From an uncultured bacterium (GTDB lineage: Bacteria > Patescibacteriota > Minisyncoccia > Phycocordibacterales > Phycocordibacteraceae), in the NCBI GenBank assembly GCA_963759775.1, contig CAVXAH010000001.1, forward strand, positions 104,787 to 142,681: a DNA stretch of 37,895 nt, given 5' to 3'. The position numbers and the translations under genes are program-made. How positions within the stretch are numbered: position 1 is the stretch's first letter; every line of letters begins with the position of its first letter. Shown in pieces: positions 2,995-31,450 of this stretch. The notes beneath the pieces are model-generated. The model made no database searches. It had not been told where the DNA came from and worked only from the letters and a program-made list of their open reading frames with translations.

Positions 2995-4320
2995 ATGACT
3001 TCTCCGGAAGGACTCCACTTTACCGTTGATGGCGGTAAAACACTTTCCGGCACAGTGGAGACCGCGCGCTCAAAGAATGGCGCCGTCGCCCTCATTGCCG
3101 CTTCCCTCCTCAACCGCGGCTCCACAACCCTGCTCAAGATGCCAAAAATTGAGGAGGTGAAACGTCTTGTTGAAGTGCTTATTTCAATTGGTGTGGAAGT
3201 GAAGTGGAGTGGAAATAATCTCGTTATTACGCCGCCACAAAAGATAAACCTCGGTTCCATTAACCGCGAAGCGGCAACGAGGACGAGAAGTATTCTCATG
3301 TTCATTGGTCCTCTGCTCCATCATTTTAAAACATTTGAGATCCCGCAGTCAGGCGGTTGCACCTTGGGGCTCCGGAGTGTTCTTCCTCATTTGTATGCGC
3401 TTGAAAAATTTGGCGTTGCAATCGAAACACTTTCCGACCGGTACCAAATAACTCACACGAAACTCCACGGCGCCGAAATAGTGCTCTATGAATCAAGCGA
3501 CACGGCAACCATTAACGCGCTTCTCGCCGCTGCACGCATTCCTGAAAAAACGGTCATTAAATATGCGTCCGCAAACTACCAAGTGCAAGAAGTGTGCGGA
3601 TTCCTTCGCGCCCTTGGCGCGAAGGTTGAGGGCATCGGCACAACAAGCATTACTATCACTGGTCTCGCTCAGTTTGAAAAAGATATTTCGTATAGCATTG
3701 CCGAGGACCCGACCGACGCCATGTTTTTCATTGCATCGGCGATCGTCACGAAATCAAAACTTAGCATCTCCGCCGCGCCAATTGAGTTTCTTGAAGTTGA
3801 ACTTTTCTTGCTTTCAAAAATGGGACTTCGCCATACGCAGAGCAACGAGCGCGTCTCTGAAAACGGAATCACCAAGCTCGTTGACCTCCATCTTGAGCCA
3901 TCAGAACTCACTGCATTTCCAGAGAAAATCCACGCGCGTCCGTACCCTGGACTCAACATTGATAACCTCCCCTTCTTCGCCGTCATCGCTACCTGTGTAA
4001 AAGGCACGACCTTGATACATGACTGGGTTTACGAAAAGCGCGCTATTTACTACACCGAGCTTGACCGTCTTGGCGCACACACGACGCTTCACGATCCGCA
4101 TCGCATCTCAATTGAGGGGCCAACGAATTTAAAAGCTGCAGAAATTATCTGCCCGCCGGCACTTCGCCCCGCCACGATTCTTCTTATCGGCATGCTCGCA
4201 GCAAAAGGTCATTCCATACTGCGCAACGTGTACAGTATCAATCGTGGCTACGAAGATCTCGTGCAGCGCCTTCAGGCAATTGGTGCTTCCATACAATCAA
4301 ACGGAAATGAATCCCGTTAG
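2995..4320 (+). CDS. murA: UDP-N-acetylglucosamine 1-carboxyvinyltransferase
   Basis: 441-aa ORF with an EPSP-synthase/MurA fold signature. The active-site-like Cys lies in QSGGCTLGLRSV. The last 3 codons and the TAG stop lie inside the left terminus of the adjacent element. Confidence 0.88.
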   Translation: MTSPEGLHFTVDGGKTLSGTVETARSKNGAVALIAASLLNRGSTTLLKMPKIEEVKRLVEVLISIGVEVKWSGNNLVITPPQKINLGSINREAATRTRSILMFIGPLLHHFKTFEIPQSGGCTLGLRSVLPHLYALEKFGVAIETLSDRYQITHTKLHGAEIVLYESSDTATINALLAAARIPEKTVIKYASANYQVQEVCGFLRALGAKVEGIGTTSITITGLAQFEKDISYSIAEDPTDAMFFIASAIVTKSKLSISAAPIEFLEVELFLLSKMGLRHTQSNERVSENGITKLVDLHLEPSELTAFPEKIHARPYPGLNIDNLPFFAVIATCVKGTTLIHDWVYEKRAIYYTELDRLGAHTTLHDPHRISIEGPTNLKAAEIICPPALRPATILLIGMLAAKGHSILRNVYSINRGYEDLVQRLQAIGASIQSNGNESR

Positions 4321-4588
4321 AGATAAAAACATGTCGTATGTGTATGTCATACAAAGTCTTTCAAGCGGCTATTGGTATACAGGAGTCACGAACGATTTAC
4401 GGAAACGCTTCAGCCAGCATCAAAAAGGGTCTCGCGGTTGGACAAAAAAGCATCGTCCGTACGAACTGATATATTACGAAGCATGTCACAACCTGGAGGA
4501 CGCGGAAGCTCGAGAGAAGTATCTGAAAGACCGGGACGGGCAAACGGTATCTCAAAAACCGCCTGAAGCGTTTCCTATCTCTAACGGG
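4312..4588 (+). mobile_element. IR-bounded GIY-YIG cassette, copy 1
   Basis: Left terminus T-CCCGTTAGAGATA (4312-4325) and right terminus TATCTCTAACGGG (4576-4588). It is flanked by ATGAA (4307-4311) and ATGAA (4589-4593). Confidence 0.7.
4331..4588 (+). pseudogene. small GIY-YIG nuclease (COG2827/YhbQ-like), frameshifted near 4524-4532
   Basis: MSYVYVIQSLSSGYWYTGVTNDLRKRF..YYEA matches copy 2 at 58 of 66 residues. A 1-nt insertion relative to copy 2 then shifts the frame, and reading continues into the downstream ORF. Confidence 0.65.
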
Positions 4589-4891
4589 ATGAAGGAAATT
4601 AAGGACATCCTTGCTGCGAAGAAGCTTGAGAAAAGTCGGAAAACCGAACGCGGTGAGCTTATGCGTTTTTTTCAGCGACATTTAAATTATTCTCGTAAGC
4701 AAGACGGCCTTCCCCCCATGACGATGGGCCACCTGGGTACGCTTCTTGAAAAGGTCCCGACGAACGACCTCTACTACCTCCAGAGTGTCTGTAGCAAAGC
4801 GCCAAACTTCAGTAAGAAATTCTGGTGGGAAATAGACCCTAAGAAGCATAAAAACGAACTTCCATTCAACAGCTACAAAAAGAAATATTGA
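4589..4891 (+). CDS. hypothetical protein (100 aa)
   Basis: The ATG directly abuts the right terminus of the element, and the frame stays open to TGA at 4889-4891. I recognise no family. Confidence 0.5.
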   Translation: MKEIKDILAAKKLEKSRKTERGELMRFFQRHLNYSRKQDGLPPMTMGHLGTLLEKVPTNDLYYLQSVCSKAPNFSKKFWWEIDPKKHKNELPFNSYKKKY

Positions 4892-4994
4892 AATGAGTCT
4901 CGCCCCGTAGCCAACCGAGTCTGCGAGGTTGTGGTACTGGGGTGGGAAATAGATCCCAAAAAACACAAAAATAAGCTATAGTGCGCGGCATGAA

Positions 4995-5270
4995 TCCCGT
5001 TAGAGATAACAACATGTGTTATGTCTACGTGATACGAAGCCTCTCAAGCAACTATTGGTATACAGGAGTCACGAATGATTTACGGAAACGCTTCAGCCAG
5101 CATAAAAAAGGGTCTCGCGGCTGGACAAACAAGCATCGTCCCTACGAACTGATATATTACGAAGCATGTCGCAACATGGAGGACGCGGGGGCTCGCGAGA
5201 AATATCTAAAGACGGGGACGGGCAAACGGTATCTCAAAAACCGGCTAAAGCGTTTCCTATCTCTAACGGG
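4995..5270 (+). mobile_element. IR-bounded GIY-YIG cassette, copy 2 (intact)
   Basis: Left terminus T-CCCGTTAGAGATA (4995-5008) and right terminus TATCTCTAACGGG (5258-5270). It is flanked by ATGAA (4990-4994) and ATGAA (5271-5275). Confidence 0.72.
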
Positions 5271-5274
5271 ATGA
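5014..5274 (+). CDS. small GIY-YIG nuclease (COG2827/YhbQ-like), 86 aa; may initiate at the in-frame ATG 4990
   Basis: The sequence has a GIY-like YVYVIRS, a YIG-like WYTGVTNDL, RKRFSQH, YYEA and REKYLKTGTGKRYLKNRL. The TGA stop overlaps the def ATG (ATGA at 5271-5274). Confidence 0.85.
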   Translation: MCYVYVIRSLSSNYWYTGVTNDLRKRFSQHKKGSRGWTNKHRPYELIYYEACRNMEDAGAREKYLKTGTGKRYLKNRLKRFLSLTG

Positions 5275-30425: not shown

Positions 30426-30458
30426 ATGCTATGCTTTTGTATGTAAAAGATAACACGC

Positions 30459-30962
30459 GTGTGTATGACACAAAAATCTATTATTTGGATTGTCGTAGCG
30501 GTCGTTGTGCTCGGACTTCTCGGTTGGTTTGTCTTTGGAAATCCCGCCCCCGCAAATGCACCAACCGAATCAAATACGGAGTCAAATGTGCCGTCCGCCA
30601 CTTCTCCTAAAACATCTGATCAAGCGCCTGCTCCAAAAACCGTAACCGTAACGTATTCGGATTCAGGTTTCTCGCCTGCTTTGATTGAGCTCTCCGCAGG
30701 AGACACGGTGAAGTTTGTGAACGCAAGTTCGCGAAATATGTGGGTCGGTGCTAACCAGCATCCGACGCACGGAGAATATGACGGCTCCACCAGAAGCGCC
30801 CACTGCATAGCAGGTTATGACGGACCAGCTCCTTTTGACGCGTGTGAGCCAGTTCAAAGCGGTAGCTCATGGTCCTTCACCTTCACCAAGAGAGGAACCT
30901 GGGGGTACCACGACCACATAAACGCAAGTGCACACGGCACCGTGGTTGTCTCCGGAACATAG
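30459..30962 (+). CDS. membrane-anchored cupredoxin-like protein
   Basis: An N-terminal TM helix precedes VTYSDSGFSPALIELSAGDTVKFVN..ANQHPTH and a C-terminal HDH...HGTVVV. Confidence 0.5.
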   Translation: MCMTQKSIIWIVVAVVVLGLLGWFVFGNPAPANAPTESNTESNVPSATSPKTSDQAPAPKTVTVTYSDSGFSPALIELSAGDTVKFVNASSRNMWVGANQHPTHGEYDGSTRSAHCIAGYDGPAPFDACEPVQSGSSWSFTFTKRGTWGYHDHINASAHGTVVVSGT

Positions 30963-30966
30963 TCAC

Positions 30967-31083
30967 ATGCGTCCCGTTAGAAATTGCGGACGCAGTCGAG
31001 GCTCTGACGCATGTTTGTTTATTAGCTTTAATCGGATAGGGTTCGGTCGCAAAATCTTTCTTGCGTCCGCGTCCTATTTCTAA
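30967..31083 (+). CDS. element-spanning micro-ORF (38 codons) MRPVRNCGRSRGSDACLFISFNRIGFGRKIFLASASYF
   Basis: The frame is open from ATG 30967 to TAA 31081-31083, 4 nt before the host ATG. 28 of 37 aligned residues match the element A peptide, with several synonymous third-position differences. Confidence 0.4.
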   Translation: MRPVRNCGRSRGSDACLFISFNRIGFGRKIFLASASYF

Positions 31084-31087
31084 CGGG
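30972..31087 (+). mobile_element. MITE-like short element C (116 bp), homologous to element A
   Basis: Termini are T-CCCGTTAGAAAT (30972-30984) and ATTTCTAACGGG (31076-31087). It shares an internal block GATAGGGTTCGGTCGCAA with A. It fills the whole intergenic gap. Confidence 0.7.
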
Positions 31088-31450
31088 ATGACTACTGAAC
31101 AGAAAGCCCACCTCGCGCTTCGCATTGGCGTCGCTTTTGCCTTTCTCTACCCTCCCTTTGCGGCGCTTTCTGACCCATACTCGTGGATTGGCTATTTCCC
31201 GAGCTTCCTCCACGCATTGCCGGTAAGTGAACTCGTGTTGCTCCACGCGTTTGGGGTTCTTGAGGTGGCAATCGCTCTCTGGATTCTCTCGGGACGGAAC
31301 ATCCGCATTCCTGCGGCGATCGCGACTTTCCTTCTGGTAGGGATTGTCCTCTTCAACCTTCCCGAATTCCCCGTCCTCTTCCGCGACCTCGCTATCGCCT
31401 GTATGACTGTCGCTCTCGTCCTCTGGCCAAGAACTGAAAGGACTGCCTAG
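31088..31450 (+). CDS. small hydrophobic membrane protein (120 aa)
   Basis: MTTEQKAHLALRIGVAFAFLYPPF... contains about four hydrophobic segments. The start is the ATG abutting the element. Confidence 0.55.
   Translation: MTTEQKAHLALRIGVAFAFLYPPFAALSDPYSWIGYFPSFLHALPVSELVLLHAFGVLEVAIALWILSGRNIRIPAAIATFLLVGIVLFNLPEFPVLFRDLAIACMTVALVLWPRTERTA

Follow-up and report, generated by a model that had tools for sequence, protein, structure and literature searches.

Inverted-repeat elements at translation start codons in Patescibacteria and their candidate mobilising enzyme, a minimal GIY-YIG nuclease

What kind of element comes to lie exactly on the start codon of its host gene, five times within a single stretch of DNA? 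The question is raised by a segment of 37,895 nucleotides (nt) from an uncultured bacterium of the Phycocordibacteraceae (Patescibacteriota; contig CAVXAH010000001.1, positions 104,787 to 142,681), here called the window, in which five short elements with common inverted-repeat ends each adjoin a host start codon. Two of them (copies 1 and 2) encode a GIY-YIG nuclease and three (elements A, B and C) are non-coding. A first-pass annotation, made from the sequence alone, had read their flanks as target-site duplications and had suggested start-codon-specific mobility. The comparisons described below make it very probable that the five belong to a mobile element family specifically associated with start codons. 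To the composite reading, in which a start-codon transposon is moved by its own Slx1/UPF0213-like nuclease and the host gene is translated through reinitiation, we assign a probability of roughly 0.6.

Start codons, target duplications and empty sites

The 12-mer CCCGTTAGARAT was found by repeat and pattern searches in ten exact occurrences in the window, which form five inward-facing pairs; the element ends accordingly read (T)CCCGTTAGARAT...ATYTCTAACGGG(A). The terminal inverted repeats are perfect over 14 nt in all five copies and about 23 nt long in elements A and C. Measured as the CCCG..CGGG span, without the terminal T and A, the two coding elements are 275-276 nt long and the three non-coding ones 112-115 nt (Table 1). 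Copies 1 and 2 are 90-96% identical to one another, with a 1-nt offset, and element C is 77-97% identical to element A, the two being near-identical copies at unrelated genes. The sequence CCCGTTAGAGATA is common to both coding copies and to the non-coding element B, and the ends are thus shared within one genome. Elements A, B and C are predicted to fold into strong DNA hairpins (z = -4.3 to -5.7, with element A at -5.7), and no Rfam family matches any of the elements. No sixth element was found in the window; a one-mismatch match to CCCGTTAGARAT at position 11636 is unpaired and, situated in an upstream region of ordinary character, is best read as a chance occurrence.

The ATG that follows each CGGG is the real gene start, since positions 1-4 of the Pep_deformylase, Ribosomal_S30AE and DUF167 profiles of Pfam fall on residues 1-5 of the respective proteins and the orthologues use the same start codon. 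In comparable DNA, 2.4% of positions adjoin a start codon that opens an open reading frame (ORF) of at least 50 codons; against this random background, five insertions out of five on start codons have p of about 8e-9, which excludes chance as an explanation. All ten junctions of the five elements read exactly as first described, with perfect flanking repeats in four cases (ATGAA three times, ATGAG once) and only the ATG retained at element C (ATGCG versus ATGAC).

The census in other genomes (one genome per species) used as its pattern the 15-mer CCTATYTCTAACGGG, which covers the right inverted repeat only, and the flanks were therefore not pre-selected. It returned at least 120 loci, mostly from Patescibacteria and Saccharibacteria, with others from Omnitrophota and Planctomycetota; the counts that follow refer to the matches listed. 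With paired ends 40-700 nt apart, the element lengths are bimodal across genomes (about 105-130 nt and 274-283 nt); none larger turned up with the same ends, and truncated elements of 47-83 nt are present. The short elements (L001, L011, L024, L067, L068, L118 and others) mostly carry a small conserved hairpin beside the host-proximal inverted repeat, ACGGAAACGC-loop-GCGTTTCC or GCGGACGC...GCGTCCGC; apart from this, their AT-rich interiors show no conservation. Outside Omnitrophota and Planctomycetota, 52 of the 71 complete elements adjoin the start codon of an ORF of at least 50 codons.

The inverted repeat holds one further base at each end, either T...A or C...G, and the two subfamilies defined by it behave differently. 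Among the T..A-ended elements of other genomes 46 of 51 are located at starts, compared to 5 of 28 C..G-ended ones (Fisher p = 1e-10), the C..G-ended relatives in Omnitrophota and Planctomycetota being mostly intergenic. The proposed targeting of start codons therefore holds for the T..A-ended subfamily, mainly of Patescibacteria, and does not extend to the C..G-ended one. Carriage by phages was considered and rejected: in viral contigs the 15-mer, which thereby also provided a negative control for the genome scan, gave 27 matches and no full-length element. Of these, 26 are unpaired, the single pair (L181) spans 54 nt, and none of the 27 is followed by ATG.

Examination of 43 occupied sites shows a variety of contexts. 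The host gene is the first of its unit in 17, often with a TATAnT box 6-9 nt upstream that suggests a leaderless mRNA, and in 15 it starts after a spacer of 4-60 nt. ATGA stop/start overlaps account for only six sites, contrary to the niche first envisaged; element B is one such case, its captured ATGA doubling as the overlap with the upstream ORF 7504-7749 (minus strand). At three sites the overlap is longer and the upstream gene now stops at the TAG of the left repeat, as does murA at copy 1, and at two sites the genes abut. In view of these varied contexts, the start codon itself is the common denominator. A TATAnT box lies 6-9 nt before the ATG at about half of the sites, and leaderless genes were considered as the sole targets; this was rejected, as starts led by a Shine-Dalgarno sequence, starts after a spacer and overlapping starts are used as well. 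We likewise rejected the idea that C..G-ended elements target -35 boxes (flanks GTTGAC, GTTTAC), there being no -10 box at promoter spacing; the C..G-ended sites tested for promoters are simply intergenic, 4-160 nt from gene starts.

The flanking repeats are indeed target duplications, but their size is 4 bp (TGNN) instead of the 5 nt first proposed. This follows from the C..G-ended elements: those at ATG starts read ATGAA-C[...]G-TGAA and rebuild the start as GTG (L040, L072, L080, L008), and in intergenic copies the terminal G lies outside the repeat, e.g. gaaTAAA[C..G]TAAA. In T..A-ended elements, the A of the downstream ATG is consequently the last base of the element. The base that precedes the duplication is A in nearly all cases, and the intergenic duplications of C..G-ended copies include TAAA, TTTA, TCAA and CAAA. 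A perfect 4-bp duplication flanks four of the five window copies, 34 of the 46 T..A-ended elements at starts and 12 of the 28 C..G-ended ones. The two bases after the ATG are AA at 18 sites across genomes, GA at 8, AG at 4, CG at 2, and GG and AT at one each. Purine-purine pairs thus occupy 31 of 34 sites against 50% expected (p = 4e-7), where the second-codon background is approximate (AA 25%, GA 15%). Of the ATGA motif originally suggested as the target, the start codon stood and the fixed fourth base did not: the target is ATG followed by purines.

Empty sites were sought in a metagenome scan with the protein of fmt, a gene between elements, which retrieved 28 loci. About 12 of these keep the order murA-p100-def-fmt-hpf-DUF167, at 60-75% amino-acid identity to the window. 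The p100 and def starts are element-free in all syntenic loci and the hpf start is occupied in one (L126) only; 8-11 syntenic relatives per gene (eleven for def) provide empty orthologous starts. After deletion of the element and one repeat, the reconstructed window start ...gctatagtgcgcggcATGAAAGCGATCGTGCAAGAG matches the orthologous ...ggtatactagagcacATGAAAGAAATCGTGCAAGAT, and the start regions of syntenic relatives correspond to those of the window minus the element and one repeat, as anticipated for a genuine insertion. Since the relatives are only 60-75% identical, this comparison is not equivalent to strain-level polymorphism. Exact look-ups of the window def and hpf proteins found no record, and the nuclease of the window is not in the protein collection, where its best match is 87% identical.

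The reverse case also occurs: L037 has an element at a gene start whose window orthologue (start 15424, minus strand) is empty. In other lineages the same start codons, those of p100 and hpf, are hit by different element types. In L091 the p100 start carries a short non-coding element of the A/C subfamily, and in L126 the hpf start carries a 79-nt element (about 6398-6476, minus strand) whose upstream start copy is ACG instead of ATG; the copy may simply have decayed, or the upstream ORF may have been selected against. In L009 (5898-6278), L007 (about 4720), L070 (about 4164) and L115, two or three elements stand in tandem on one start codon, with a regenerated ATGAA between neighbours; these arrays fit re-insertion into the regenerated target. 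The near-identity of elements A and C at unrelated genes implies that short elements move as short elements. As judged from these comparisons between genomes, the elements are mobile. The first-pass annotation had named two outcomes as fatal to its reading, namely empty sites that do not fit removal of the element and one repeat, and many copies without the flanking repeat, inside genes or in random intergenic DNA; both were looked for, and the reading withstood each. A separate observation concerns L206, a contig of 640 nt that has the nuclease gene and left flank identical to those of L201-L203 and a different downstream gene; the element may be present there a second time, on another start codon, or copies may have recombined, or the assembly may be chimeric across the repeat.

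A nuclease gene with borrowed start and stop codons

Like the 4-bp duplication and the occupancy of start codons, the borrowing of both a start and a stop codon by the coding form is read directly from the DNA. In copy 2 the ORF begins at the ATG of 4990-4992, which lies in the duplicated target and outside the inverted repeat, and continues through the left repeat as ATG AAT CCC GTT AGA GAT (MNPVRD). It ends in the right repeat with TTC CTA TCT CTA ACG GGA TGA (...FLSLTG), and its stop codon, the TGA of 5272-5274, lies in the second target copy and overlaps the def ATG (5271-5273) as ATGA. The same layout is found in other intact long elements (L007, L049, L090, L098, L104) and also in L159, L192 and L201. 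A second variant (L048, L088, L035, L070, L087) uses an ATG of its own, in a different frame, and terminates at the right-repeat TAA.

Homologues of the nuclease number more than 3,281 protein clusters at E <= 1e-5. Among the 120 best of these, 93 begin with M[N/S/I/G/D]PVRD and 92 end with KRFLSLTG. The second codon consists of the last two duplicated bases plus the T of the element, and the second residue tracks these variable bases; 37 of the 93 proteins have no other Met in residues 2-14. Protein-based look-ups, which are independent of the DNA pattern, revealed 4-nt overlaps with co-directional downstream genes for RuvX, the ATP synthase alpha subunit and a peptidase S11, the last locus having a further ATGA overlap on its upstream side. 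Copy 1 differs from copy 2 by one extra A near 4526, by which its ORF is fused in frame to p100 (ORF 4307-4891); copy 1 is therefore probably inactive, and the fusion may be either a pseudogene or an N-terminally extended host protein. The differences between the two copies number 3, 5 and 15 at the first, second and third codon positions, respectively, which indicates purifying selection on the nuclease.

The protein is a member of the GIY-YIG superfamily: residues 9-79 score 63.4 bits on Pfam PF01541, for which the gathering score is 22.6 (E = 2.5e-17). In an alignment of 46 sequences, with the consensus YvYv..S...wYTG.T.DLRKR...REkYLK, the residues Y13, Y24, R32, H38, E58, R69 and E70 are invariant and include the motif tyrosines, the Arg and the metal-binding Glu. 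Its closest match by sequence among solved structures is the UPF0213 protein BH0048 (1zg2, E = 1.8e-4), and 1ywl gave E = 0.09. An AlphaFold model (predicted local distance difference test, pLDDT, 83.5) was compared by Foldseek, which ranked 1zg2 first, followed by nine Slx1 chains, at probability 1.00 and query-normalised template-modelling (TM) scores of 0.50-0.61; I-TevI reached a TM score of 0.43. On the basis of this model and of modest E-values, the nuclease is placed with the stand-alone UPF0213/Slx1-like type and not with homing or UvrC-type enzymes, with a single domain of about 90 residues.

No transposase class (DDE, DEDD, HUH, serine, tyrosine or Cas1 casposase) was recognised by Pfam in the sole ORF, and the NCBIfam search gave nothing above cut-off (TIGR01453 scored 16.5 against a cut-off of 56). 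A sub-threshold Pfam match was to T5orf172, in our view a domain related to GIY-YIG. The GIY-YIG ORF, which overlaps both repeats, fills the long form and leaves no space for another protein.

The element ends also bear on translation of the neighbouring genes. The right repeat carries two stops, a TAA 4 nt before the host ATG and the TGA that overlaps it, and the remaining frame leads into the host ATG in phase. In the left repeat, TGA and TAG block the two frames available to an overlapping upstream gene. The upstream ORFs of elements A, B and C (Table 1) end at the right-repeat TAA. In 17 of 45 short elements the frame of the captured ATG is stop-free across the interior, compared to 32 of 225 for the other five frames together (p = 5e-4), and the orientation of short elements relative to the host gene is 36:6. 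The open captured frame and the orientation bias point to selection for translation through the element. Reinitiation after termination at ATGA overlaps has good precedent: in one study, 13 of 14 tested gene pairs exhibited strict translational coupling (PMC6728339).

Proposed route of insertion and alternative explanations

We propose that the family consists of miniature DNA transposons with terminal inverted repeats. The autonomous form of about 277 bp would comprise two 14-nt inverted repeats and one ORF for a GIY-YIG nuclease of 86-94 residues, and the short forms (112-130 nt) would be non-autonomous derivatives that keep only the ends. The T..A-ended subfamily would insert at A|TGRR of a start codon and duplicate the 4 bp TGRR. 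As a result, the original ATG of the host gene would come to lie upstream, along with its promoter or ribosome-binding surroundings, and serve as the start codon of the element ORF, and the nuclease would thereby be expressed from host signals. The ORF would stop at the TGA supplied by the second target copy, and the last A of the element together with the TG of the target would rebuild the host ATG, creating an ATGA stop/start overlap at which the host gene is most likely translated by termination-reinitiation. On the standard reading the nuclease would mobilise both size classes; it may itself cut the element ends and the target, perhaps at positions staggered by 4 nt, and may recognise a hairpin or cruciform formed by the palindromic element; host ligation or repair would then complete the move, with both junctions regenerating target-like sequence. 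Start codons would be actively targeted and not merely tolerated.

A number of points weigh against this proposal. To our knowledge no GIY-YIG enzyme acts as a transposase, and we know of no enzymology for this nuclease family, in whose catalytic domain of 86 residues a module for DNA recognition is not obvious. A perfect duplication is missing from element C and from 12 of the 46 census elements. The upstream ORF has an early stop in 22 of the 36 short elements with an intact captured ATG, and reinitiation is therefore not a universal route of host-gene translation. The closest relatives of the window share only about 70% identity with it, its contig is not in the searched collections, and what counted as "start" or "intergenic" in the census was defined approximately, from ORFs.

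Active targeting has to be weighed against survivorship only. Insertion might occur at any TGNN or TNNA, with coding copies lethal, intergenic ones deleted, and those adjoining a start shielded from imprecise deletion. This account, which we regard as unlikely, finds support in the C..G-ended relatives, whose intergenic duplications amount to a loose T-N-N-A preference; it is compatible with the existence of truncated elements, and it gains from the fact that a terminal A next to any TG rebuilds an ATG automatically. The distribution of ATGRR in the same Patescibacteria loci is difficult to reconcile with it: there are 157 occurrences at ORF starts, 291 outside ORFs and 1504 inside ORFs, so that random insertion at ATGRR, with only the coding copies purged, predicts about 35-44% of elements at starts, whereas 90% of the T..A-ended ones are found there (p < 1e-11). 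Moreover, the non-coding derivatives, which need no expression, have the same start-codon bias, the base before the duplication is nearly always A, and tandem re-insertion took place at regenerated ATGAA. The bias of the non-coding forms, the near-identity of elements A and C and the tandem arrays favour active targeting, to which extra selection against intergenic copies may possibly add.

Another question is which enzyme moves the elements. An unlinked conventional transposase might move the elements with the CCCGTTAGAGAT repeat in trans, in which case the GIY-YIG gene would be either a passenger or a selfish nuclease of the homing type. In favour of this, GIY-YIG enzymes are generally known as homing endonucleases and not as transposases, 4-bp duplications with short inverted repeats are typical of DDE-transposase elements, and only 38 kb of this genome is visible. 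We consider it slightly less probable again than survivorship, given that the paired ends fall into just two size classes with no larger element among the matches listed, that the long form accommodates the GIY-YIG ORF alone, overlapping both repeats, and that the repeats are locked to the N and C termini of the protein in thousands of homologues across phyla. A homing endonuclease gene as such was rejected, as homing cannot account for copies that carry inverted repeats, are flanked by target duplications and lie at more than 40 genes unrelated to one another.

It is improbable that the elements are no longer mobile and represent a regulatory cassette conserved on the 5' side, whether a leader RNA with a defined structure or an upstream ORF, by which translation of the downstream gene is tuned, with the nuclease as an ordinary coupled neighbour. 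Their strong hairpins, and the preferentially open frame and orientation bias that point to selection on translation, would suit such a cassette; yet the orthologous genes of close relatives are without the element, flanking duplications are present, the host genes are unrelated, only the ends and not the interiors are conserved, and Rfam gave no match. An artefact of assembly, through collapsed or mis-joined metagenome repeats, can be given hardly any weight. The contig L206, in which the left flank known from one locus is followed, beyond the element, by another right flank, shows that such repeats can confuse or recombine assemblies. Against an artefact, more than 100 assemblies, made independently in many projects, have the same architecture, and both flanks are collinear with orthologous loci.

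With its repeats, fixed duplication, empty sites, and coding and non-coding forms, the element has, as far as its sequence can tell, the structure that defines an inverted-repeat transposon. The most far-reaching version of our proposal, that it represents an unrecognised class of prokaryotic transposon, mobilised by a minimal Slx1/UPF0213-like nuclease, actively targeting start codons, with an ORF that is completed upon insertion, and possibly the smallest autonomous element known (about 277 bp), is in our estimation an even bet.

Neighbouring features, related elements and implications

The coordinates of the elements and of their host genes are presented in Table 1. The murA gene (2995-4320) now stops at the TAG of 4318-4320, which belongs to copy 1 and its left inverted repeat; restored to the empty state, it would be about 14 nt longer and would overlap p100. 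A TATAnT box lies exactly 7 nt before the ATG of def and hpf and of their orthologues (window 4975-4992, and 7128-7147 on the minus strand; loci L121-L132), and in most def orthologues it is preceded, two bases upstream, by a TG, which gives the pattern of an extended -10 box (TGnTATAnT). This conserved box suggests that the def and hpf mRNAs are leaderless; a consensus promoter scan called no promoter at either gene.

Several other features of the window are unrelated to the elements. The sole Rfam hit is a group I intron at 7805-8095 (58.5 bits; region 7805-8140, plus strand), whose flanks (about 7844-7876 and 8106-8140) read like tRNA halves split in the anticodon loop; ARAGORN made no tRNA call across the window. 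A CTTCCGGGGCTTTTTGTTTTTCGAGGATGCGACCGGGAGAAA-like direct repeat of 42 nt, present in three copies (8163-8204, 8229-8270 and 9448-9489), may be a terminator-like module. Three pairs of direct repeats of about 250 nt, 70-80% identical (291-537 and 1581-1827, 17027-17294 and 22059-22326, 18109-18369 and 18695-18955), are probably paralogous genes.

Table 1. Elements, target duplications, ORFs and host genes in the window. Spans of elements are given from CCCG to CGGG and with the terminal T and A.
Feature	Coordinates	Strand	Remarks
Copy 1, long, GIY-YIG domain	4313-4588 (276 nt); with T and A 4312..4589	+	exact inverted-repeat pair
Copy 1, left target duplication TGAA	4308..4311	+	with A4307 gives captured ATG 4307-4309
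Copy 1, right target duplication TGAA	4590..4593	+	rebuilt host ATG 4589-4591, A being the element's last base
Copy 2, intact long element	4996-5270 (275 nt); with T and A 4995..5271 (277 nt)	+	
Copy 2, left target duplication TGAA	4991..4994	+	
Copy 2, right target duplication TGAA	5272..5275	+	
Copy 2, GIY-YIG ORF, 94 aa	4990..5274	+	Pfam PF01541, E=2.5e-17
Element A, non-coding hairpin former	7013-7124 (112 nt); with T and A 7012..7125 (114 nt)	-	same subfamily as C
Element A, upstream target duplication TGAA (minus strand)	7126..7129	-	captured ATG is reverse complement of 7128-7130
Element A, downstream target duplication TGAA (minus strand)	7008..7011	-	hpf ATG is reverse complement of 7010-7012
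Element A, upstream ORF, 37 codons	7017..7130	-	captured ATG to right-repeat TAA, 4 nt before hpf ATG
Element B, non-coding hairpin former, different interior	7387-7501 (115 nt); with T and A 7386..7502 (117 nt)	-	
Element B, upstream target duplication TGAG (minus strand)	7503..7506	-	captured ATG is reverse complement of 7505-7507
Element B, downstream target duplication TGAG (minus strand)	7382..7385	-	DUF167 ATG is reverse complement of 7384-7386
Element B, upstream ORF, 38 codons	7391..7507	-	ends at right-repeat TAA
Element C, non-coding hairpin former	30973-31087 (115 nt); with T and A 30972..31088 (117 nt)	+	
Element C, unmatched flanks	left TGCG 30968..30971; right TGAC 31089-31092	+	captured ATG 30967-30969
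Element C, upstream ORF, 38 codons	30967..31083	+	ends at right-repeat TAA
p100, 100 aa	4589..4891	+	no Pfam match; orthologues begin at same ATG, element-free
def, peptide deformylase	5271..5813	+	Pfam PF01327, E=4.9e-41; profile position 1 on residue 1
hpf, ribosome hibernation factor, S30AE family	6653..7012	-	Pfam PF02482 (Ribosomal_S30AE)
DUF167 (YggU family) gene	7162..7386	-	Pfam PF02594, E=1.2e-12
DoxX-like gene, weak match	31088..31450	+	Pfam PF07681, E=5e-4, under gathering score; ATG 31088-31090 begins with terminal A of element C

Among known systems, the elements are most readily compared with the pairs formed by MITEs (miniature transposable elements bounded by inverted repeats) and small insertion sequences (IS) of bacteria, such as the Correia elements of Neisseria, IS630/Tc1-mariner elements with their TA duplication, and IS5-type elements with 4-bp duplications. 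Like these, they have inverted repeats, a short duplication of fixed length, many copies, hairpin-forming sequence, and short derivatives that share ends with a longer coding form. Unlike them, their sole protein is a GIY-YIG nuclease of about 90 residues and not a DDE, HUH, serine or tyrosine transposase, which places the element outside every known IS class. They also differ in the ORF without a start or stop of its own, in the insertion at start codons and in the size of the coding form, about 277 bp; the smallest classical insertion sequences measure about 700 bp or more.

Free-standing GIY-YIG homing genes (phage T4 Seg, I-TevI family) are also selfish GIY-YIG genes wedged between host genes. 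They copy themselves into the cognate allele by double-strand-break repair and have no inverted repeats, no duplication and no spread to unrelated genes; their enzymes carry large DNA-binding domains, whereas the protein of the element is a catalytic domain only, with weak matches to TIGR01453 and I-TevI. UPF0213/YhbQ (COG2827) and the nuclease domain of Slx1 share the minimal single-domain GIY-YIG fold. Slx1, a structure-specific endonuclease, acts on stem-loop and branched DNA, an activity in keeping with a palindromic substrate. Slx1 differs in that it needs a RING domain and its partner Slx4, whereas the gene of the element is embedded in inverted repeats that encode its own termini. The UPF0213 proteins carry no assigned function, and no report of their mobility was found in the literature searched.

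The Rickettsia palindromic elements (RPEs) are likewise short palindromic selfish DNA that persists in the translated part of essential genes in reduced genomes, and are tolerated since their insertion preserves the reading frame or function of the host gene. RPEs interrupt coding sequences without loss of frame, and no enzyme is known for them; the elements described here lie exactly on the start codon, which they restore, and a coding form accompanies them. A short functional motif as a damage-limiting target is also used by class C group II introns (terminators), IS200/IS605 elements (tetra- or pentanucleotides) and IS1397 (repetitive extragenic palindromic, REP, sequences). In our case the motif is the translation start codon and the chemistry of mobility is another: no duplication arises with IS200/IS605 elements, and for group II introns the route is through RNA. 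The literature searched, in whose coverage most subscription journals were not included, contained no description of a GIY-YIG transposon or of mobile DNA that targets start codons.

If the nuclease is the mobilising enzyme, GIY-YIG would join the chemistries of transposition, and the lower size limit of an autonomous mobile element would be set anew. Start-codon parasitism is a niche of which we found no earlier report in the literature searched: the element takes over the transcription and translation signals of the host and probably hands the ribosome back at the ATGA overlap, and neighbouring genes are barely altered because the element ends carry stops in the other two frames. Genes with a GIY-YIG domain figure in one paper's list of predicted transfers out of Patescibacteria into other bacteria (PMC12455944). 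For annotation, the elements affect start-site calls, N-terminal extensions and apparent gene fusions such as that of copy 1, and a protein of 90 residues that directs DNA to ATG starts could become an experimental tool. The proposed role would, if true, be the first biological role for the large orphan UPF0213-like family, and would provide a testable function for thousands of small proteins from Patescibacteria and other uncultured phyla that are now named only "GIY-YIG nuclease family protein" or "excinuclease ABC subunit C".

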